64,000 nt of DNA from Squalus acanthias. Taxonomy: Eukaryota. A program made the translations under genes and the position numbers. The notes beneath the pieces are model-generated. The model was given only the letters and a program-made list of their open reading frames with translations. It ran no database searches and had not been told where the DNA came from. The DNA lies in assembly GCA_030390025.1 (NCBI GenBank), contig CM059431.1, positions 94,490,001-94,554,000 on the forward strand. The letters run 5' to 3'. Position 1 is the first letter of the stretch. Each line of letters starts with the position of its first letter. Shown here one piece after another: positions 49,586 through 61,000 of this stretch.

Positions 49586-50738
49586 CTGACATTCCAGGGA
49601 ATCTAATAATGAATCAAGGACTGGAACTCACTAAAGCTGACGTAAGCTAGAAAACAGTATTAGAAAAAATAATATGAACGTACATACGAACATACGAATT
49701 AGGAGCAGGAATAGGCCACTCAGCCCCTTGAGCCTGCTCCACCATTCAATAAGATCATGGCTGATCTGATTACTCCACATTCCCGCCTACCCCCGATAAC
49801 CTTTCACCCCCTTGCTTATCAAGAATCTATCTACCTCTGCCTTAAAAATATTCAGAGACTCTGCTTCCACCACCCTCTGAGGAAGAGAGTTCCAAAGAAT
49901 CACGACCCTCTGTGAGAAAAAAATTCTCTTCATCTCTGTCTTAAATTGGCGACCCCTTATTTTTAAATAATGGCACTTAAGACTGACAAATCCACAGAAC
50001 CTGATTGTTTCCACCCTAATGGCTTAAAGGAAATAGGTGAGGAAATTGCAGATGCTTTAGCTATAATTTTCAAAAGCTGTCTTGATTCAGGAATTGTCCC
50101 TTTAGGTTGGAAAATTGCAAATGTAACTCCATTATTTAAGAAAGGTGTGAGAGAGAAACCAGGAAATTATAGACCTGTTAGTCTCACATCTGTTATGGGA
50201 AAATTATTGGAATCTATAATTAAGGACAAAGTGACTGAGCACTTAGAGAAATGTAAGCTAGTTAGAAAGAGCCAACATGGATATGTAAAAGGTAGGTCAT
50301 GTCCCACTAACCTAATTGAATTACCTGAGGAAGTAACTAAAGTAGTAGACAGATGAATGTCTATGGTTGTAGTTTATATGGACTTCCAGTAGGCATTCAA
50401 TAAGGTTCCACATAAGAGACTGTTCGCTAAAGTTAAAGGCCATGGAATTGAATGCAAATGCACGATGCACGATCTGTCCATGCCCTTTGAAGGTAATGCA
50501 GGCAGCACGCGAAATTCATACTGCCTGCTAATTAACATAATGGAAGTGCTGAGCGTAATGCTGAACGCACTGCTGGTTGGCTCAGCACTCAGCAGGGGCT
50601 CCAATTTTGTGGGAAGTGTGATCTCTATTTAAAGGTTGCCTGCAGAGTGAAACACTGTCTGCACTTCTTAAAGGGGGGGTGTGCTTTCTGAAAGAAGCAC
50701 CTAATTGTTAGCGTAGGTCAGGAAAGGGGAAGGTACCA

Positions 50739-52633
50739 ATGTCGCAACATGGCAGAGAAAGGGCACCTTGGTTCTTGGACACAGCACTGGAGGCCTTAGT
50801 GCAGGGGGTCGATAGGAGGAGACAGGCCCTCTACTCGCAGGGGGCCAGGAGGCCCTCCAGACAGACTGTACGAAGGCAGTGGGAGCAGATTGCTGAAACG
50901 GTCAATGCTACCAGTCTTTCCCCCAGGGCCTGGATCCAGTGCCGAACGAAGTTTAATGAGTGGTCAAGGTCAGTGAATGCATCTTCAAATGTCATATCCG
51001 ACCATCTGCACCACTAGCCTCACACATTGCTCAATGCACCACACACCCATCACTCACCTACCAACAATCTCTATCAATCACAACTCATATCTAACAATCA
51101 TAGCTTCACCTCGCCATCACACACTTACCAATGTTACAAGCCTCATACCCACATCTTACACATTTCATACTATTCAACCATGACAAGCATATCACCCAAA
51201 CACATTGCACCGCACTCACTGACACACTTCCCTTTCTCTTGCAGGCCAAGGTGGCACATAACCGGCACCAGCAGCAGCTAACAGGCAGGGGGCAGGCACG
51301 GCTGCAGAACCTGACCCAGCTGAAGGAGACTGTGCTGGATATCATTGGAGGGGCCGTCACTGAGTCCGTGGTGATCTGCAAGGCTGAAAGCATTGATGAT
51401 GACGGTATGCTCATAGTTAATCTTCATTCTCACATCCTACTTCCCCCTCATCCCACAATCTCTTCTCACTTGCCAGCTGCTAATGGTGTAAGCATGCACA
51501 TTTTCCTTTCCCTCCGCCCCCTCACCACAATCCTACCCTTGTGCCTTTCTCCTTTCAAATACCGAAGAACTTCCACCAGCCCAGCCTGTGCATGAGAATA
51601 AGAGGAGGAGGGTGTTAGAGAAGAGACACTGTCAATTGATCTGACACTCGCAGGCACCAACTCAGAAAATGTTACTGCGCGAACTTTAGAGGGTAGTATA
51701 GAGGCATGATCTGCATGTGGTGAGTCACCGGGCACGAGTGGGCAGCAGCCAGGACAGGGGAAAGGGTAACACAGGGGCCAGCTCCCCAGAGGGTGAGGTC
51801 ACACATGGGTTCTGCTGCAGTGGAGTCAGATGAGGACTTTGATGGGGCAGCCTTCGGAAGAAGGGTGAATGACATACACATGGAAATGCTTGGTGAAATG
51901 CCAGGTCTACCAGAGAGCCTGTTGTCACTGTCAAGGAGAATGAAGGCGTCCAGCTCCAACTTTTCCCAAACCTTTGCGCAGAGCTTGGAGTCCATGATTT
52001 CCAGGATGGAAGTGATGAGCAACTCCATTAGAGCACTTGTGGCCCCAACCATGATGCAGGGTCTGATTGGGCAATGTCTCAGCTTCCATTGGAGCACAAG
52101 TGGAAGCAACAAAACGTCTGAGTGCTGCAATGGAAACTCAGACTTCTGTTATGCAGGCTCAGCTTACTACCATGCAAACTCAGACTGCTGCCATCATGGC
52201 TGCATTTACCAGTGTTGAAAGGGACTTTCAGGGTCTCTCAGTCCAGCAATCTGCCCTCCAACAGATTACTCGGATTGTTGAGGCGCCTCCCTGGGGGAGT
52301 GGCAGTGGCTCTGTGGAGCATGAACCTGCTGTCCTCTCTCAGGGTGACAGGTTTCATCCTCCCACCACTGCCACTGCATCAGTGCCCTTGCTGTTGCCTG
52401 TCAGCCAGCCAGTACAGACTGCTGCCCCCCATGCCGAGGTGGTGCAGTCTACAGCTGGGCCTTCTAGGTCCAGAGCTGCTCGAGATTGTCCTGCAAGGCC
52501 ATCTGCAGTCTCCCCCATGAAAAGTCAGCAGCCTTCCACCAGCCATGCTGCAGCCACTGGCATAGCACTTTGTAGGAGCACTAGAATAGGCAAAGGCACA
52601 CAAAAGACAGACATTAACGGAATGTACAAGTTG
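50739..52633 (+). pseudogene. Harbinger Myb/SANT gene, 3 exons (50739-50968, 51245-51404, about 51560-52633)
   Basis: RERAPWFLDTALEALVQGV..WEQIAETVNA..WIQCRTKFNE; exon 2 AKVAHNRHQQQLTGRG; GT donors at 50969 and 51405. Confidence 0.82.
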
Positions 52634-52894
52634 ACCTTGTTATGTAATTTTGGAATTAATCCTTTATAAATTATGTTTGGAATGTTTCTTATGTGGTGGC
52701 TTTCATTTCAGCATTGTGACCAAGAGGACGCTGTGATGATCCGTGACAGAGGGTTGGTAAGGTGGGGAAATGTTGAGCAACGGGGATCTGGGGTTTCATT
52801 CAGGGGAACCGGAATCTGATGATGCGCTCACGGACAGCCTGTCAGGAACGGGGATTTGCAGGCTGTCTCTTCCTTCCTCCTCCTCCTCCTCTTC

Positions 52895-53141
52895 CTCCTC
52901 CTACTCTTCCTCCTCTCCCTCCTCCTCCCCCTGAGGTGGTCGTGGAACCTGTGGTGGCAAGAGCTGTGCCCTCATGATAGCCAATTTGTGAAGGATGGAG
53001 CATGTAAGAAATAGCTATTAGATTCATAGATGAAGTTTGACTCTTAGAACAGAAATTAAAATGCAGTCAGGAACAAATGGTTGAAGTGTCAGCAAGGTCA
53101 AATAACAAACACCAAAATGATAAGAGGATCGTAAAATGCAA
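52895..53141 (+). repeat. 247-bp direct duplication, copy 1 (copy 2 at 57168-57414), flanking the ERV
   Basis: No mismatch seen by eye; offset 4273 bp. Confidence 0.93.
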
Positions 53142-54443
53142 CAAGCCTTCTATAAAGTTCCGGCTAAAGTTAAAGAGACCGAGTACCTGTCGTACTCCTC
53201 TCACGTTTATGGGCCTTGGCATTTGGCTGATTGCCTCCTTCCTTTCCTCTGGCATAGCCCTTTTTCCCATACTGACCCTATACCCGAGGTATGTGACTTC
53301 CAATTTTCCTACCTGGGCTTTGGCTGGGTTTGCTTTAAAACCCGCCTCCCGTAGGGTTGAAAAGACCTTTACCAGGGCCCCCTTATGTCCCACTTTCGTT
53401 TCTGACGCTATTAGGAGGTCATCCACGTATTGTAAGAGGGTACTATTTTCACCCTCTAAGTCTAGGTCTTCAAGAGCTCTGGCCATATGGCGGTGAAAAA
53501 TGGCTGGACTGTTATGGAATCCTTGTGGGACCCGTGTCCATGTATACTGTTTGCCGCCTATTGTAAAGGCGAACTTTTCCTGTGATTCCTCATGCAGGGG
53601 AATGGACCAGAACCCGTTTGCGATGTCTAACACGGTGAATATTTTGTGTTCCGGTTTTAAACCGTTAAAGATAGTAGCTGGGCTTGCTACAATTGGATAT
53701 TCCTTTGGGGTCACTTTATTTAAGGCTGTGTAATCGATTGTAAGTCGATATGACGCATCAGGTTTCTTTACGGGCCATACTGGAGAGTTAGTGCCGGACA
53801 CTGTTTCTCGCAGAATTCCCTGTTTCACGAGTTCCAATACTATACTCCGTACGGCTGTCTGGGCCTCCACTTTTAGGGGATATTGTTTATGGGGTCGGTG
53901 GGTTGGCCCGGGGACTCTGACTGGGTTCATCTTAACCAGTCCGCAGTCCTGCTTGTGTTTGGCCCATAGTTCGGGGAATCGGTGGCAAATTGCCCCCCAC
54001 CCTCCCTTTTCGTCCCATTTGGGGTCTATTATTTGGATAGCGCTGATGGCACATGCTGTCTTGGATCCCTTTGAGTTATGTCTCCCTTCCTTGTGGTTAT
54101 CGGGCCATAGCAACTTATCCTGTTTGGGGTCTATTAAAACTCCCACTTCCCTTAGTATGTCTATACCCAGGATGGTTCCCTCAGTATTCTCACAGATCCA
54201 GAAACATGTAGGTATAATGATTTTTCCCAATTCTAGTAATACTGTCTCACTTTTCCATGCTTTAATTTTTACTCCCCCTATCCCAGATATAAAAATATTT
54301 TCCTTGGTTCGCGGCAAGGGTACGTTTGTTAGAGATATTGCTGCCCCGGTGTCTATGAGCATTCTGCACTGTCGGCCCCCTACCAGTGCCTCAATAAACA
54401 TTCTAGGGTCTCCCTTTACCGGGTCTCCGAGGGCCGCTACCTT
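53142..54443 (-). CDS. pol: Retroviral protease + reverse transcriptase (truncated; no RNase H or integrase)
   Basis: LIDTGA, ILGIDIL (PR); KQYPL, NSPVWPVKKPD, LDIANGFWSIP, YTWTRVPQGFHNSP, QYVDD (RT); same frame as gag after TGA. Confidence 0.93.
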
Positions 54444-55991
54444 TCAGGCGTTGCCTTTTTTTATCTGTTTGACCAGTTTTTCCATTTTCCTTGTCAGCTC
54501 CACTATGTCTTCCTCGTCGGAGGTGTCTGAGGAATCATCTCTCTTATACTTCCTACTCTTTCTCCTCTTCCTTTCTTCTCTTTCTCTGTCATCCTCCCAG
54601 TCTTGCATTCCCTTCCTGATCAGTTTCGCCATGCTTTCCTCGTTATTCTCTGACCTTCCAATACTTGACCCCGGTTTTCCTCCCTGTCTAGGTCCCTGAC
54701 CTTCCCTTCCTCCTCCTTTATTCCAACATTGTTGTTTCCTATGCCCTGGTTTTCCACAATTATGACAGGAAGCCTTTTGCTGAGATGTCTGATTATCCCC
54801 TTTGTTCTGTTGCCTCGGGCAATCCCTTTTCATGTGGCCCTCCTGTCCGCAACCGAAGCATGCCGCCACACTTAATGCATCCTCATTGTCGCTATCCGTC
54901 CTTAGGGCAGCTATTTTAGGTTTGGCTTGTTCTTGGACCTGATTATCTACTTCGCACGCCCACTGTATTAAGTCCTCCCAATTATGGTGGACCACTAGCC
55001 CCATTTTTATTGCATTCTGGTGCATTGGACTTAGTCCCTGTTTAAATGTTTGCAGAAAACAAGCGTTGTTTTTGTTTAAGGGGCCTGGGATCCCACAGTT
55101 ACCCTCAAAGGCGGACCACTTTCGTTTTCCATAATCGATAGCGCTTTCTCCCTTTTCTTGTGTGATTCCGCTTATAGCTGCCCAATTTACGGGGGCCTGT
55201 CCCATTGCTGCTTCCACAGCGGCCTTGAATTGGTCGAACTCAGTGTTTAATTGTTGGATTGTCTGTCCTGTATTTGTGGCCCACTGGCCATTTCCGTGGT
55301 TGCCCTGCACTAATCTCCACTGTTCCTCGGGACATTTAGCTCGTACCAATTGATCGATATCTATACTATGTAGGGCATGGTTTATGCGTACTTCGCGCAG
55401 TTTGTGCCAGAATGTCTGATTATTCTGGCGGTGTTTTAAGGCTGGTAATTCATTGAGGAGAATCACCCGATCCTGCAGGCTTAACGGTGTGTAGGTCAAC
55501 GTTGTGGTGGCCGGCCTGCCCGGTACTGCCGGGACGGCCGGATTCCCCCCTGCCGCCGGAATTTCCGGAACCGCGGGGATTGCTGGCCTATATTGCAGTG
55601 TCACTGGTGCCATCGGAACAGGCTCCGGGGCTGCCGACTGGTGTCCTGTATATGGGGGAGGACAGCCAGTCGGCCCCCCCTGGGGCAGCTCCGGGTATAA
55701 CCTTTCCTGGGAGTTACCCGGTTTTGGGTTGGCTGCAGCTGCTGGATATGTTTTAAGGGCTCCGCGCTGGAGCATACGTTCCCGATCGTATCGTGCCGCT
55801 ACGATAATGCACGCTTTCTCCAATTTATTTTTGGTTTGTTTCCTCCACCAGTCCCTTTGTGTGTCTGGTTTATCGTCCTGGTTCCACCCTGCCTTTCTCA
55901 TTTTCTCAATTAATTTTTTATTCTTGTCGTAAACATATCGTGTTACAGACTCTGGGTCTCCCCAGGGTTCCTTATCCTCTTTGCTAGCCAT
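54444..55991 (-). CDS. gag: Gag polyprotein, 515 aa, intact
   Basis: LYPEL and PPPY late domains, MHR-like ITQEKGESAIDYGKR, two CCHC knuckles CFGCGQEGHMKRDC and CHNCGKPGHRKQQC. Confidence 0.93.
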   Translation of the reverse strand: MASKEDKEPWGDPESVTRYVYDKNKKLIEKMRKAGWNQDDKPDTQRDWWRKQTKNKLEKACIIVAARYDRERMLQRGALKTYPAAAANPKPGNSQERLYPELPQGGPTGCPPPYTGHQSAAPEPVPMAPVTLQYRPAIPAVPEIPAAGGNPAVPAVPGRPATTTLTYTPLSLQDRVILLNELPALKHRQNNQTFWHKLREVRINHALHSIDIDQLVRAKCPEEQWRLVQGNHGNGQWATNTGQTIQQLNTEFDQFKAAVEAAMGQAPVNWAAISGITQEKGESAIDYGKRKWSAFEGNCGIPGPLNKNNACFLQTFKQGLSPMHQNAIKMGLVVHHNWEDLIQWACEVDNQVQEQAKPKIAALRTDSDNEDALSVAACFGCGQEGHMKRDCPRQQNKGDNQTSQQKASCHNCGKPGHRKQQCWNKGGGREGQGPRQGGKPGSSIGRSENNEESMAKLIRKGMQDWEDDREREERKRRKSRKYKRDDSSDTSDEEDIVELTRKMEKLVKQIKKGNA

Positions 55992-56018
55992 AGTTTATTT
56001 ATTTATTTATTTATTTCT

Positions 56019-56400
56019 TTTTCGGCCAGAAGGAACTCCCCGTTTTAACTACTACCTAAGTTTACTTTTCGGCCAGAAGGACTCGCCCTCCACCGTGTTA
56101 AAACTCCCCGTTTTAACTACTACTTAAGTTTACTTTTCGGCCAGAAGGACTCGTCCTCCACCGTGTTAAAACTCCCCGTTTTAACTCCTACTTAAGTTTA
56201 CTTTTCGGCCAGAAGGACTCGTCCTCCACCGTGTTAAAACTCCCCGTTTTAACTCCTACCTAAGTTTACTTTTCGGCCAGAAGGACTCGTCCTCCACCGT
56301 GTTAAAACTCCCCGTTTTAACTCCTACTTAAGTTTACTTTTCGGCCAGAAGGACTCGTCCTCCACCGTGTTAAAACTCCCCGTTTTAACTACTACTTAAG
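56019..56400 (-). repeat. 68-bp tandem repeat array in the ERV leader (5 units + 1 internally deleted unit)
   Basis: TTTTCGGCCAGAAGG at 56019, 56066, 56134, 56202, 56270 and 56338. Confidence 0.95.
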
Positions 56401-56628
56401 AGCCGCACCTCGTGGGCCTATCAGGTTTCTAAACCCTTGTTTTCCGGTACCGCAGTCCGGCAGTGTTAACCGCCTTCAATTAAAGGTGTCTTTCTTTTTA
56501 TAGTTCTTTTGTACGTCAATCTTACTTAACGTCTCGCCAGCGATTAACCTCTAATTTTACAGGTGGTAATTTAAACGTACTCACCCGTCTTAGGTTATCG
56601 CTGTCCGAGAGTTTTGTTCAGATCGCGC

Positions 56629-56646
56629 ATCCCATCCTCGTCGCCA
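56629..56646 (-). promoter_or_regulatory. Primer binding site for tRNA-Ser(GCU)
   Basis: TGGCGACGAGGATGGGAT, 2 nt after the LTR CA; complementary to the vertebrate tRNA-Ser-GCU 3' end ATCCCATCCTCGTCG-CCA as I recall it. Confidence 0.9.
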
Positions 56647-56648
56647 AT

Positions 56649-57167
56649 TGATGTAAGCTCCCAAAGTGCGGACCCAGTGATATACAAGGTCGACGCTACT
56701 GAGCTTGTTGGAAGAAAGACTGACCAAGTAATTGAAGTCACAACGGTTTATTACAGGCCTGGGGAGAACCTCTCATGTCGCTTACATGAGTACAACTCCA
56801 CCGAGCTAATGAAAACACACATATTTATATCCAATCAGGTTTAAAAGTTACACACAATGCTAGGTCTAAAAAAACACATTACTCGTTTTACAAATATTTC
56901 TGTCTTGCCTTTACAGAGATCCAATTAGGTTTAAAAGTTACTTGGTTAGCAAACATTTCTGTCTCGCCTTATGGGGATCTCGTTATCCGAGGGTGGCTGT
57001 AAAAGTTACATACAATGCTATCTGTAAATCTCGTTGAAGGAGGTAGACTCCGAAAGCTTGTAAGGTGTTGTGTGACTTGAAACAAATCTCGTTAAAGGCC
57101 TGGCTTTCTGCAAATGAGTCATGCCCGAATTGCCCTGGTTATATCCAATTTTTAATATCTTACTTCA
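56649..57167 (-). mobile_element. ERV 5' LTR (519 bp)
   Basis: Termini TGAAGTAAG...CTTACATCA; TATAAA near 56825-56830; AATAAA at 56747-56752. Confidence 0.9.
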
Positions 57168-57275
57168 CTCCTCCTACTCTTCCTCCTCTCCCTCCTCCTC
57201 CCCCTGAGGTGGTCGTGGAACCTGTGGTGGCAAGAGCTGTGCCCTCATGATAGCCAATTTGTGAAGGATGGAGCA

Positions 57276-58025
57276 TGTAAGAAATAGCTATTAGATTCAT
57301 AGATGAAGTTTGACTCTTAGAACAGAAATTAAAATGCAGTCAGGAACAAATGGTTGAAGTGTCAGCAAGGTCAAATAACAAACACCAAAATGATAAGAGG
57401 ATCGTAAAATGCAAGAAAACACAGGAGGATAACATCGTAACTAGAAAACAAAGAGCCACAAAGTCATAAAATGTCCTTAAAGAAACATAACAAAACATTC
57501 CTCAGAAAGATAAGAGAAAGGCCTTGTCAGCCATGCAGAAAGGGGCAGTGAGAAATGTCTGCCCGCACCACACTTGGATTATAAATGATTGACACTAGAT
57601 AGATCACAGCCCACCGAAATAACTATAAATATAGACCACTGAGAGAGGAAATCGGACAGCGAGGGGTGAAGGCTTTTTCGACGTGGAAATCAACACTGGC
57701 TCAGACTAAGTTTAGCCTCTGAGGTGGATCAATGCTGGCTTATGCCTAACACCTCCAACAGCTCGGGGGACGAATCAACAGAAGTGACTGCTGTTACTGG
57801 CTGCAGAGACCCGCTGACCCGAGACCTCCAACCGTCCATCCGGTCGTGGCATTCCGCTTCGGGAGTTGTAGATCGCTCTCTACTGTCACGGGTTGTATGT
57901 CTATTATACTCAGCTTAAACCACATGTAATATCTGATGATGCATTAAAACTGTAGCTCTTTAATAAAAAGCCTTACAACTCCTAAGACCCTTTGGGTAAT
58001 CTGTGTGTGACCTGTGATCCTAACA
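57276..58025 (+). mobile_element. Solo LTR (750 bp), unrelated to the ERV LTR
   Basis: TGTAAG...CTAACA, GCA/AGCA target duplication, TATAAA near 57624, AATAAA near 57962; interrupts the transposase codons VVVC|SILH. Confidence 0.85.
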
Positions 58026-61000
58026 GCAGACCACCACACATTGGGACACCCACTCCAGTAAGTGCTGGAGAGCTCCTCCTGAGCGGTCAAGGTCGTGGAA
58101 CCATTGCTTGAGCACCCCAATAGTCAGCTCATTGACATTCCTTGTGGCAGCATGGCTGTCATTAAATGAGTGCTGGCCACGAGTGGTGGGTTTGTGTAGG
58201 GGAGTCATCGGCCAGGTGTACAGCGGATAGCCCTTGTTGCCTAGCAGCCACCCTCTTGTTCGACATGGCGGCTGAAAGATTGCTGACACAGCGGACTGGC
58301 ACAGGATGAAGGCATCATGACTGCTGCCAGGATACCGTGCATTCACCATCATGATGTGCTGGGCGTGGTCGCACGCCAACTGCACAATAAGTGAGTGGTC
58401 GCCTTTGTGGTTACAGTACATCTCAGCATTGATATGTGGCACCTGTTTGTGCAGTTGATGGCACCCTGCATCATGGGGAAGCCTGATATCCTGGCAAAGC
58501 CACATGTATGCCCCTCCTGCTTCTCTCTGTTTAGAGAGAAGAAAATTAATTTCCTCCTCCTAGAGTACAGAATATTTGTGACCTCCCAGTTGCAGCAATG
58601 GGTGGCGAACTGTGAGATCTTTGTTATGTTGCCTGTTCCAGTCTGGAAGGATCCGTTGGTGAAAAAGTTCAGGGCCATGGTCACCTTGAAGGCCACTGGC
58701 AGCACCATCGTCATCCTGCTCTGAGGTTGCAGGTCTGGTAGCAGGAGGTGACAGGGTTCTGCGACCACCTCCGTGGTGAAGCGGAGCTGCTGAACACACT
58801 GCTCCTGGCTTAGGTGCAGGTAGGAGAAGTGCTCCCTGAAGACCCTGGGTAGGTAAGACCTCCTGCTGAGAGCCCATCTCCCCCCCACTCCTCCTCCCTC
58901 TGCGAGCAGCTTGTCTTCTTTGCTGCCTCTGTTCCAGCCCCCTGTCATGCTGTAGCACGAGGAGGACTGCAACTAGAGCCCCCATGACTGGGAGCAAGTG
59001 GTGTACTCCGAGACCTTCCAGTAGCTGCCAACACCTTCCCAACATCCAGCAGCACTCCCTGCACACTTTAACAAGGTTATAAATAGCTTCCAGCAACCCA
59101 GTACAGACTCTGCAAGAGCCAGTATGAGAAATAATCAACTTACCTGCAAGTTGGATGTATCCCTGTAAATAATGCTGGTGGGGGCAGGCGGGTCCTTTGT
59201 GTGGCTTTAGGAAAGGGAATTGATTGGAGTGGCGACATCGAAAATGGCAGGTCTTGCTTCAAATCAGCGTTACATGCTGACTGAAGTCGTGATCTGCCTA
59301 CTCTGCATACTGCCGACCTGCTCCTGCTCCTATTTCTTATGTTCGACATATAGGTGAGAAACAGGCCTAAGTCTTACACACCCAGTCCCACCAACCAGCC
59401 CCACAAGGATAGCCACTGGCTGTCTCTTCTATACCCACTGAGTGTAAATGTTGGTGAGGAGGCTGGGCCCAACAGCCGCTGGATTTGCCTGCTTACTGCT
59501 GCTGTCTCTATTGACTCCAGGGACCTAGCAAGCATAGGGTAGCAGTAATCCCTGGGGCAGTAGTGGTAGCCCCCTAACTCACAGAATCGAGGGTGAAGGT
59601 CGAGTAGTGGTCGTCTCTCCCTGCACATAGGCCCCAAATGCAATTCTTTCCCCTATTGGCTGAATCCGATGCCATCAAAGAAAATTTAAATGCACCACTA
59701 CATTTTCTGGCCTTTAATGGTGGGGGTCCCACTGGGAGCCCAGCATGTTTACTTAAAGAGTCCTGTCCCAGGAAAATAGGTCGGGGTTACGACAGGTTTA
59801 GGGCGATGGGTTCACTGTGAGGAAAGTCCAGCCCTACACCTTCAAAGTGTATGTAGAACATCATCTTAGTAGATGATTCAATGTAGTTTTCAGCCTCTTC
59901 CATTCAAGCAGCCTGACTCACACTTTGTCATTCTGGTTTTCTCCTATTGTTGCGTTATTATTACCATCTCTGGTCAGAATGGCTGTGAATATTACAGAAA
60001 GAGGAAATGTTTAATTGTGTGCTGGTAAACCAGGCAGCTGACCATAAATTAAATTGTGGAGTCTTCTCACATTACAGGCAGTCTGTGTCAAGCAGTGGCC
60101 ACACGTGACTTTTGAAATATAATCCATAGAAACTGTGGGCTCCATTCAAAGCACAAAACAGAGTTTGGTCATTTCACTCTCCCAGCAAGGAGCCTCACCC
60201 ACCAGCAGAATGTATCAGAAATCTGACCATATGTTGTGTGTGGCTTGCCAGTAGGTGAAGCGCTCAGCTGGGAGCACAAGATCAACAATTAGCCGGCATT
60301 AACAACAACAACCTGTATTTATATAGCGCCTTTAACGTAGTAAAACGGCCCAAGGCGTTAAGTAAATAAGCATTGATAAAATCAGGTGCTGAGTAAAGGT
60401 GCAATGTATTCATAAACAAGTGTTTGGTGGACAGATGGCACAAAGGCATATGTCCTATCGAAACAGCATCACATCACCTCCATATCACACGATCATTATA
60501 AAAATGATACACTCTCTGTCTGATGCCCTCAAACAGAGAGAAGGCTCTGTGGAGACAGTGCCCTATTTTATTTTAGAAGGGAGAAGATTTCCCATGTCAC
60601 ATTGTCAGGATGATATGAGGGCTTGGTTTCACAATCGGGCACCCACAGAGGGCATGGAACTGGAATTCATGGGTTGTGATTAGCTGAGTTGCACCAGCTA
60701 CAGGTACCACTCCTCACTGGCAGTGCCCGGTCGCAGGTTCGGCCCTCGTGACACGACGGCACATTTCATTCTGATTCACATCACGGTCCGTTTAGAAATT
60801 AAAAAGGGATTCTGTTGACAACAGTACCCCTCACAAGTAATGTGTGGGTTTATGAATTAGCTTCCCCAGCACATAGCTTCATGGAGCCAGGAGCATTGAG
60901 CAGAAATGTTTTTATTCATCCATCACTCACATTCAAAGAGCATTGCCTTGCACAGGTTAGAAAGAATGCCATAGAATGTTTTTGTCACTGTTGCAGACAG

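Follow-up and report, generated by a model that had tools for sequence, protein, structure and literature searches.

We found that the window, a stretch of 64,000 nucleotides from Squalus acanthias, contains a dead provirus that keeps its true 5′ end and is truncated on its 3′ side in the middle of the RT. It very likely belongs to a multi-copy endogenous retrovirus (ERV) family that lacks env and has multiplied very recently. Phylogenetically, and with the same good confidence, the element would belong among the orthoretroviruses, in the deep assemblage of fish and amphibian lineages that is basal on the gamma/epsilon (class I) side. The features of the locus are as follows (positions in the window).

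57168 to 57414, no strand: host target sequence X, upstream copy, 247 bp, 100% identical to 52895-53141
57167-53143, minus strand: truncated ERV, with all parts where the original prediction had placed them
56649 to 57167, minus strand: 5′ LTR, TG...CA, 519 bp; the same sequence bounds the sister copies at both ends
56829-56824, minus strand: TATAAA inside the 5′ LTR, by direct sequence reading
56752-56747, minus strand: AATAAA inside the 5′ LTR, likewise by direct reading
56629 to 56646, minus strand: PBS, 18 nt, complement of the host tRNA-Ser(GCU) 3′ end including CCA
56034 to 56400, minus strand: leader with a 68-bp tandem repeat, 5.4 repeat copies
54444 to 55991, minus strand: gag, 515 codons plus TGA; ATG at 55991, TGA at 54446-54444
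53143 to 54443, minus strand: pro-pol, continuing the gag frame immediately behind the TGA; ORF cut after ...NFIEG
~54398-54132, minus strand: protease, part of pro-pol
~53771-53274, minus strand: RT fingers/palm, part of pro-pol; thumb, tether, RNase H and integrase lie beyond the break
53142, minus strand: junction base, matching neither the intact element nor the host (both have C), within a TTC microhomology
52895 to 53141, no strand: host target sequence X, downstream copy, followed without a break by the original flank, a simple repeat rich in GGA/TCC

In the sister copies the LTR measures 516–519 bp, or 459 bp in a shorter variant, and the leader carries 3–5 core units of the 68-bp repeat, compared with 5.4 in the window copy. 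This tandem repeat was not part of the original prediction. The perfect tRNA-Ser(GCU) PBS proposed there was borne out in the host genome: the PBS-derived tRNA pattern occurs 336 times, against 6 occurrences of a control pattern, and in three of the six loci fetched ARAGORN called a tRNA-Ser(gct) whose end falls exactly on the pattern.

The Gag protein has 515 aa and starts with MASKED, without Gly2. It consists of a helical N-terminal domain, a disordered linker, a two-domain capsid, two CCHC knuckles and a charged helical C-terminal tail. The linker holds two intact late domains, LYPEL (residue 98) and PPPY (residue 111); the knuckles are C-x2-C-x4-H-x4-C motifs at residues 378 and 409 (Pfam zf-CCHC, E 1.5e-6). 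The MHR reads Q278-x3-E282-x7-R290, of which Q278 and E282 are at least 90% conserved across 30 Gag relatives, and the best match of an AlphaFold model of the MHR/capsid region was the MLV capsid (6hwx_A, E 3.8e-5). Pfam searches of this Gag gave no Gag_spuma match and no Gag_MA, Gag_p12 or Gag_p30; a gamma reference (L040) has all of the latter three. In the foamy references L057, L058 and L061 the Gag_spuma_N, central and C domains were matched, and the Gag of L057 has no CCHC motif. The intact gag, MHR, paired knuckles, YPxL and PPPY motifs and missing Gly2 that had been predicted were all recovered. However, the accompanying statement that gamma/epsilon Gag normally has one knuckle is at odds with a passage of Jern et al. 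2005 (PMC1224870), according to which epsilonretroviruses, and some gammaretroviruses too, have two NC zinc fingers.

In the window copy, pro-RT runs without a stop from the gag TGA to the break, as predicted, and matches RVP (E 4.6e-7) and RVT_1 (E 1.9e-36) in Pfam. The RT motifs listed earlier, VLDIANGFWSIPL, QYTWTRVPQGFHNSP and YVDD, were all found in it, and the context of YVDD, LLQYVDDLLIAS, is of the gamma/epsilon type. The arrangement gag-TGA-pol in a single frame was observed in 13/13 copies (the window copy and 12 sister copies); the 93 nt around and after the TGA folded no better than shuffles (z 0.10). Full-length Pol has 1187 aa and matches RVP, RVT_1, RT_RNaseH_2 (the tether, PF17919, residues 457-543), an added RNase H (RNase_H, PF00075, residues 637-777), Integrase_H2C2 and rve, with WEGPYLV, the GPY motif of IN, near the C-terminus. 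A degenerate RNase H tether plus a second RNase H is described as retroviral in part of PMC7947760. The bit scores of this Pol were 387–396 with MLV/XMRV RT-RNase H (residues 155-783), 200–224 with foamy PR-RT, 194 with Ty3 and ~85–98 with HIV.

The 12 other genomic copies that we fetched are 7.5–7.7 kb each. A complete element has the order LTR-gag-TGA-pro-pol (1187 aa)-881 bp non-coding-LTR, and also the tRNA-Ser(GCU) PBS, the variable 68-bp leader repeat and a polypurine tract before the second LTR. The 516-codon gag frame was present in 11 of these copies, the 1187-codon pol frame in 8 and both in 7. Seven of 11 LTR pairs were identical and the other four had 1–2 mismatches; 5-bp target-site duplications were seen in 8/11 copies. 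Genome-wide, element copies were 95–100% identical over 4,023 bp (best 37 of 1,648 candidates) and LTR copies 99–100% identical (best 40 of 432 candidates). The family has multiplied very recently in the S. acanthias genome, and the identical LTR pairs together with the intact ORFs of the sister copies agree with the very young element originally proposed. Element 31-mers were also present in public runs under six organism codes from eight studies, and the contigs of one of these, organism B, differed from the window by 0–2 letters per piece of 110–1,192 bases. The six codes may be close relatives or one species.

Between pol and the 3′ LTR, no ORF of at least 150 codons was found in any of the 12 copies fetched. 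The longest forward-strand frame in this 881-bp spacer is 63 aa, and among the best 40 scored 3′ regions all 40 had the contiguous non-coding spacer at 99–100% identity. When the spacer was compared by blastx with six reference Envs and with every protein fetched, no env similarity emerged (best E 0.83), and Pfam gave no env at E up to 10. This survey covered the best-scoring genomic copies, and env-bearing relatives may have escaped it. Full-length copies lacking env had been named in the original prediction as an outcome that would refute it, and they are what the search for complete proviruses returned; no such copies had been described there. A 40-aa open stretch of the spacer has a Trp/Gly-rich segment, about 22 hydrophobic residues and then KD, and resembles an Env TM membrane anchor.

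Loss of env after endogenisation is the usual explanation for such a structure. In the life cycle that we propose, the LTR would drive the genomic RNA, Gag would be translated directly, and Gag-Pro-Pol would be made by occasional read-through of the TGA, as the reading frame suggests. The tRNA-Ser would prime reverse transcription, and integrase would insert the DNA with the 5-bp target duplication seen in the copies. With no env, new copies would arise by germ-line retrotransposition or with an envelope supplied in trans.

It is possible, though we think it unlikely, that an infectious retrovirus survives, either exogenously or as rare env-bearing proviruses, that the family branched off from it with a recent deletion of env, and that the spread of the family, including that to the other host labels, occurred with an envelope in trans. 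The intact PPPY and LYPEL, the anchor-like stretch in the spacer, and the 31-mers under six organism codes with the nearly identical organism B contigs are consistent with this scenario. However, the spacer shows no similarity to env at the levels given above, all 40 scored copies are env-less, and the organism codes need not be distinct hosts.

The window copy itself is not one of the complete members. Its ERV sequence ends at 53143, followed by the one odd base at 53142 and by host DNA from 53141, and the fragment lies between two directly repeated, perfectly identical 247-bp stretches of host DNA (X), a feature absent from the original prediction. Two old repeat families meet within X, and sequences related to X at other genomic sites share just 85–90% identity and stop or start inside it. 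The truncation and the duplication would most likely stem from an aberrant integration of one end only or from illegitimate exchange with the empty allele; error-prone end joining at the microhomology probably sealed the truncated end.

Alternatively, though we regard this as rather improbable, a heterozygous full-length insertion could have been misassembled here, with the truncation and the 247-bp duplication as artefacts. The element is near-identical in at least 40 copies, and such repeats break assembly graphs. Moreover, in four public runs every contig extending as far as 53143 runs on into intact pol and none into host, and the RT/host junction was not found among the public-run contigs listed, outside which there are 7,336 further pieces. 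Yet contigs with intact pol are expected given the many intact copies, and the junction may lie among those 7,336 pieces. The junction also offers no overlap usable by an assembler, only 2–3 nt of microhomology and the odd base, and a chimera formed at random would not resume in this very locus, 247 bp upstream.

A bolder extension of the env-less family reading, which we hold to be speculative and quite improbable, is that this deep lineage is mobile in the host germ line today. The copies under six labels would then reflect ongoing spread within or between species via a trans envelope, and the window copy would be a rare fossil of one-ended integration.

We placed the element by RT phylogeny. 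In the careful ML tree (48 rows × 619 columns) it falls in a clade with the ERV proteins P0002, P0004 (Pimephales) and P0012 at 100/96. In a quick tree with 42 retroviral and 8 Ty3/gypsy rows, this clade includes P0008 (Heterodontus) and P0003 at SH-aLRT 96 and is nested inside the retroviruses, which are split from Ty3/gypsy at SH-aLRT 100. In this outgrouped tree, built without lokiretrovirus references, the L055 group, the P0017 group and the foamy viruses diverge before the element clade (SH-aLRT 93 and 99). We tentatively take L055 to be snakehead retrovirus and L053 to be walleye dermal sarcoma virus (WDSV), from record lengths and a weak Cyclin_N match. A 98/99 split in the careful tree puts the element outside the clade of WDSV-like (L053/L050) and gamma references. 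With a lentivirus outgroup, a quick tree joins the element clade to the snakehead-retrovirus-like L055 set (SH-aLRT 98); the careful tree, which includes no ERV-L references, joins it weakly (65/70) to the epsilon/gamma side instead. RT-RNase H identity to gamma-, epsilon- and snakehead-retrovirus-like references is 34–37%.

The deep branching that had been predicted is thus confirmed to the extent that the element lies deeper than Gamma- and Epsilonretrovirus, but it is very probably neither spuma-related nor loki-like: in trees without lokiretrovirus or ERV-L references it sits beside horn-shark and minnow ERVs, inside the retroviruses. A spuma-related or lokiretrovirus-like deep lineage, combining a foamy-type RT with an orthoretroviral Gag, is very improbable. 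Its appeal lies in the NGFW of RT motif A, shared with the foamy references, in the position of the clade outside the gamma+epsilon crown, and in an AU test that did not reject a tree with the clade adjoining the foamy branch (p 0.333, lnL difference 5.96). However, NGFW also occurs in 8/9 of the deep class I rows shown that are not foamy, the snakehead-retrovirus-like reference among them; the likeness to foamy RT is real at the level of the motif, and the YVDD context is that of the gamma/epsilon type. In the careful tree the element is outside the foamy clade, which is set apart by a branch of 3.3 substitutions/site (100/100); its RT-RNase H identity is 25–28% to six foamy references in full-length alignments and 32–34% to the other seven over the RT half only, below the class I values. 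The Gag architecture, the pol in the gag frame behind a stop and the nesting with the Ty3/gypsy outgroup also oppose this view. According to parts of PMC7947760, lokiretroviruses are sister to all other retroviruses, have an Env similar to the paramyxovirus/pneumovirus F (PF00523) and in some cases an SMC-like gene; the element, nested within retroviruses in a tree without loki references, has no env, hence no F-like env, and no extra gene. A Ty3/gypsy (Metaviridae) LTR retrotransposon would account for the missing env, the many copies and the 5-bp target duplications, but is scarcely credible, as the Pol has both PF17919 and PF00075 (the Ty3/gypsy matches retrieved lack PF00075), a branch with SH-aLRT 100 separates it from the 8 Ty3/gypsy rows, and the modelled capsid resembles retroviral capsids.

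Two established genera were also considered. The element has an in-frame gag-pol TGA, two CCHC knuckles and a GPY motif in IN, and the in-frame stop, two NC zinc fingers and GPY/F in IN are given as epsilonretrovirus markers in the portion of Jern et al. 2005 (PMC1224870) that deals with them. Epsilonretrovirus sensu stricto was nevertheless rejected, the RT being excluded from the WDSV-like reference clade by the 98/99 split. Gammaretrovirus was rejected as well, with the RT outside the gamma clade and the three gamma Gag domains missing.

Because NGFW is widespread, being common to all deep fish/amphibian lineages in the tree, and two knuckles are known in epsilonretroviruses, the feature combination is not the unusual one that had been claimed. 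The "foamy" NGFW is an ancestral state retained by many of these lineages; since it is not foamy-specific, reading the motif was misleading. The family leaves the known picture of retrovirus evolution unchanged. Its interest lies in its age: the earlier dated ERVs of cartilaginous fish are tens of My old in the passages giving such dates, with elephant-shark CmiERVs at 54–75 My (Han 2015, PMC4422223) and the earliest catshark ERV insertion at ~36 My (PMC10699275), in contrast to the identical LTR pairs seen here. With these pairs, and with gag and pol open in 7/12 copies, the family may be considered a candidate retroelement that is still active in cartilaginous fish.

The closest known sequences are the uncharacterised ERV Pol/Gag-Pol proteins of Heterodontus francisci (P0008) and Pimephales promelas (P0004/P0006) and the unnamed P0002/P0003, in the same RT clade. 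Their RT is 51–64% identical to that of the element, and therefore the element and the horn-shark and minnow ERVs are different families; the Gag part of P0008 is 33–36% identical over ~430–450 aa. A search of a collection of 5.8 billion proteins found none above 61% identity. As far as the available text of Xu et al. 2018 (PMC6001957) describes them, the snakehead-retrovirus-like 'clade Huo' and the epsilonretrovirus-related 'clade Mu', together with the CmiERVs, are like the element deep fish/amphibian/shark retroviral lineages outside Gammaretrovirus, and have the NGFW motif and in-frame gag-pol in common with it. The C-terminal part of the L055 Gag is 33% identical to that of the element; L053 and L055 have an env of 1,134–1,229 aa and extra ORFs, whereas the element has neither env nor accessory ORFs.

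Foamy viruses share NGFW, WTRxPQGFxNSP and YVDD with the element RT. In contrast, their Gag has Gag_spuma domains in place of a capsid with MHR and CCHC knuckles, their pol is expressed independently of gag while that of the element appears, from its frame, to follow gag behind one TGA, and their Env is absent from the element.

Env-less, retrotransposon-like ERVs include mouse IAP, MusD/ETn and ERV-L, and such elements were reportedly called 'genomic superspreaders' by Magiorkinis et al. in 2012. The element resembles them in its LTR-gag-pro-pol-LTR layout without env, in its many near-identical copies, in its intact gag and pol and in its canonical target duplications. It differs from mouse IAP, MusD/ETn and ERV-L in coming from another retroviral lineage and in having its late domains still intact.

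The ERV at 57167-53143 (minus strand) is a truncated copy of an env-less, recently amplified ERV family of the deep fish-type class I assemblage. This family appears to be new; supplements of published papers may list it. All the sequence features that the original prediction had listed for the window copy were recovered: the PBS, an intact gag without Gly2, the late domains, the knuckles, the MHR and the RT motifs. The parts of this copy and of its surroundings are as follows.

Features of the window copy and of the adjoining host DNA
57167-56649, minus strand: LTR of 519 bp with TG start and CA end; TATAAA and AATAAA are readable inside
56646-56629, minus strand: primer-binding site of 18 nt, which begins 2 bases past the LTR
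56400-56034, minus strand: leader tandem repeat, 5.4 copies of a 68-bp unit
ATG at 55991, TGA at 54446-54444, minus strand: gag, 515 codons
From the codon after the gag TGA, minus strand: pro-pol, with protease (RVP, E 4.6e-7) and reverse transcriptase (RVT_1, E 1.9e-36) by Pfam
58020-58559, minus strand: remnant of a DDE_Tnp_4 transposase (PIF/Harbinger-type), on one side of the ERV
50712-51017, plus strand: Myb/SANT-like frame, on the other side
49967-50356, plus strand: LINE-type RT fragment, further left

A search of the 3.7-Gb genome yielded 72 matches of 95-100% identity from the 37 scored of 1,648 first-look candidates, and 12 copies were fetched with their 3′ parts for structure comparison. 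These copies are 7,532-7,728 bp long and have the order LTR-gag-TGA-pro-pol-spacer-polypurine tract (AAAAGGGGGGAAT)-LTR. The 516-codon stop-to-stop gag frame was present in 11/12 of them and the 1187-codon pol frame in 8/12, both frames occurring together in 7/12; the remaining copies had a stop, frameshifts or N-terminal loss in pol, or an altered gag end.

The original prediction had proposed inspecting full-length copies for env, and the outcome went against it. We found no ORF of at least 150 codons between pol and the 3′ LTR in the 12 fetched copies, the longest forward frame of the 881-bp spacer being 63 aa, and the pol end, spacer and LTR start were contiguous in 40/40 scored copies (371 candidates). 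Therefore, the full-length element is without env. A search of the spacer for an env remnant reached a best E of 0.83 with blastx and yielded no relevant Pfam hit at E up to 10. We also observed, in the spacer of the sister copy L015 (1471-1590, minus strand), a 40-aa open stretch in which a Trp/Gly-rich segment is followed by ~22 hydrophobic residues and then KD. By its sequence this stretch, which is without blastx or Pfam support, resembles the membrane anchor of an Env TM and may be what remains of an env since lost; together with the intact late domains, it suggests that the loss was recent.

In 13/13 copies gag, TGA and pol lie in a single frame, and read-through of the TGA would yield Gag-Pro-Pol. 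The RNA around and downstream of the TGA folds no better than its shuffles (z 0.10) with a tool that predicts no pseudoknots, which lends a read-through structure no support. The copies would multiply within germ-line cells by retrotransposition, or with the help of an envelope provided in trans.

That the ERV is very young, as originally predicted, held in a weaker sense. Seven of 11 LTR pairs were without any difference over 459-519 bp and the other four had 1-2 mismatches (n=11, as one of the 12 fetched copies showed no 3′ LTR within the stretch taken), and a perfect 5-bp target duplication flanks 8/11 copies. One difference per 518 bp amounts to ~4 My at the slow rate of 2.2e-10 per site per year assumed by Han for the chimaera (PMC4422223) and to ~0.4 My at the mammalian rate. 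Hence, the family is much younger than the elephant-shark ERVs, which were dated at 54-75 My (PMC4422223), its absolute age being uncertain. Three of the 12 copies (L024, L025 and L026) have LTRs of ~459 instead of ~518 bp, in the same form at both ends, which suggests that a sub-lineage with a shorter U3 has been replicating. The number of leader repeats also varies among copies (3-5 core units), and these numbers and the LTR length variants show several replicating sub-lineages. The family thus described is of interest mainly because it may still be mobile in its host group.

Two full-length copies, L016 and L019, have no matching 5-bp flanks and LTRs 2 mismatches apart; they may be products of inter-provirus recombination or of flank rearrangement. 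Elsewhere, beside a provirus, two LTR copies stand head to tail with nothing internal between them (G000:C11:25822183-25823201), an arrangement that either a tandem LTR or a nested insertion could explain.

The assignment of the PBS to tRNA-Ser(GCU) was borne out: a genome search found its complement (without CCA) 336 times, versus 6 times for a control pattern, and in 3/6 fetched loci ARAGORN placed a tRNA-Ser with anticodon GCT ending exactly at this pattern. Over the window ARAGORN found no tRNA gene. On contig C26 of the same genome (~38.89-40.88 Mb), the tRNA-Ser(GCU) 3′-end pattern repeats dozens of times on both strands at a regular spacing of ~1,623 bp, and so resembles extensive tandem arrays, either of tRNA-Ser genes or of a repeat derived from a tRNA.

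Next, we considered the truncation. From the alignment to an intact sister copy, the element sequence stops at 53143 (...GAAGGCTT); an odd junction base, G, follows at 53142, where element and host both have C, and host sequence runs from 53141. The missing 3.66 kb was not found anywhere else in the window. The 5′ end is the exact LTR end, like integrase-made junctions, and the 3′ end is a non-homologous junction within RT. The ERV sits in a decayed element of the PIF/Harbinger type. The 247 bp of host sequence upstream of the LTR (57414-57168) reappear with zero differences past the break (53141-52895), after which the original flank continues. As this segment lies across the junction between two old repeat families, in which the remaining members reach only 85-90% identity, the duplication is local and recent. 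A TCC/GGA trinucleotide run of 19 copies (52875-52932) directly adjoins the integration site.

Two readings fit this structure: a broken cDNA would have integrated at one end, with end joining making the second join 247 bp away, or an illegitimate exchange would have taken place between a full-length and an empty allele. It is also possible that the truncated structure is an assembly error, as public-run contigs that reach 53143 go on into intact pol; however, such continuation is expected anyway from the other genomic copies. Neither the RT/host junction nor an insert-skipping contig is among the public-run pieces and joints listed, which, with the 247-bp repeat and contigs alone, is uninformative either way. 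The 31-mers of the stretch were found in public runs X1-X20, from six organism codes (not necessarily different species) and eight studies; in the contigs of organism B, each piece of 110-1,192 bases showed 0-2 letter differences from the window. None of these runs is marked as firm RNA, and 4 are marked "RNA?" by guess.

The intact Pol (1187 aa) contains RVP, RVT_1, an RNase H-like tether (PF17919), a second RNase H (PF00075) and the integrase zinc domain and core, with WEGPYLV close to its end. Against solved structures, it scored 387-396 bits with MLV/XMRV RT-RNase H (residues 155-783), 200-224 with foamy PR-RT, 194 with Ty3 and ~85-98 with HIV RT. Its best matches in a collection of 5.8 billion proteins were unnamed proteins (59-61%), followed by Heterodontus francisci (55%) and Pimephales promelas (50-51%), and later ones were fish, amphibian, bird and mammal class I ERVs and Rauscher MLV Pol (~37%); no foamy virus was among the best 120 listed.

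For the trees, a single-Pol search of viral contigs gave no match, and a search with an alignment (A1) was needed to find related loci. Retroviral references were IMG/VR genomes obtained by an alignment-derived pattern search and typed by Pfam: MLV-type and REV-type (Gag_MA, Gag_p12, Gag_p30, TLV_coat), foamy (Gag_spuma, Foamy_virus_ENV), three lentivirus-type genomes, a genome of 12,708 bp in which one ORF has a weak Cyclin_N hit (L053), presumably walleye dermal sarcoma virus (WDSV), and a 10,688-bp complex fish-type genome (L055), on our assumption possibly snakehead retrovirus. Five metagenome contigs (L059, L063, L065, L069, L075) matched the WTRLPQGF pattern without similarity to RT and were rejected; L051, L054, L056 and L073 (split, fragmentary or duplicate) were left out of the trees. 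Ty3/gypsy outgroup Pol proteins were added from a separate search, and 12 crown or foamy rows were removed before that tree.

In the careful ML tree (RT-RNase H, 48 rows, 619 columns, LG+C20), the foamy references split from all else (100/100) on a branch of 3.3 substitutions/site, contrary to the predicted spuma relationship. The element grouped with the database proteins P0002, P0004 (Pimephales) and P0012 (100/96), outside a 98/99 clade of the Astyanax/Coilia group, the WDSV-like reference, catshark and skate ERVs and all gamma-type viruses. The element clade was a weak sister of the epsilon/gamma side (65/70), and in a quick tree with lentiviruses added it joined the L055/frog/unnamed set (SH-aLRT 98). 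Deep branching thus stands as a position outside the epsilon/gamma clade, the basal order differing between trees. Placement of the element clade beside the foamy branch was not rejected by the AU test (p 0.333), which we read as a basal order without resolution rather than as foamy kinship. In the Ty3/gypsy-rooted quick tree (RT and tether, 8 outgroups, 50 rows, 442 columns), retroviruses were set apart at SH-aLRT 100. The element clade (96), now including horn-shark P0008 and P0003, was nested, with the L055 and P0017 groups and foamy viruses branching off below it (93, 99). In this tree the positions of the long branches leading to foamy viruses and lentiviruses are unstable and are not to be interpreted.

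The RT motifs had been considered foamy-like. Motif A is NGFW in 4/5 rows nearest the query (query included), in the L055, frog, P0017 and Astyanax rows and in foamy viruses, whereas WDSV-like and gamma rows have xAFF. Judged from this occurrence in the aligned sequences, NGFW is an ancestral state kept by deep lineages and no foamy signature; YVDD stands in a context (LLQYVDDLLIAS) of gamma/epsilon type.

A kinship with lokiretroviruses was not upheld either, given the nested position and the missing env. According to PMC7947760, lokiretroviruses form the sister group of all retroviruses and have an F-like Env (PF00523), in some cases also an SMC gene; none of these features fits the element, the comparison being by description, with a tree that holds no lokiretrovirus sequence.

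Gag begins with MASKED, and so lacks Gly2, and carries LYPEL at residue 98, PPPY at 111, two C-x2-C-x4-H-x4-C knuckles at 378 and 409, and the MHR Q278-x3-E282-x7-R290, whose Q278 and E282 are the sole nearly invariant columns among 30 aligned Gag relatives. Its AlphaFold model (mean pLDDT 77.9; >90 across most of residues 170-360) predicts a confident helical N-terminal domain, late domains in a disordered linker and a charged helical tail past the knuckles. The best structural match of the model was the MLV capsid (6hwx_A, E 3.8e-5), followed by HTLV-1, BLV and RSV capsids.

Two knuckles, originally regarded as unusual, are no anomaly, since Jern et al. 2005 (PMC1224870) report that epsilonretroviruses and some gammaretroviruses have two NC zinc fingers; they also count read-through and the GPY/F motif among the markers of the epsilon/gamma side of the tree. 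Of our references, L051 likewise has two knuckles, but L053 and L055 each have a single one. A word-based search with Gag gave no match among proteins of 283-902 aa, and an exhaustive HMMER search recovered the relatives. The L055 Gag shares 33% identity with that of the element over 133 aa of the C-terminal part, and a horn-shark protein is homologous to the element Gag at 33-36% identity across ~430-450 aa.
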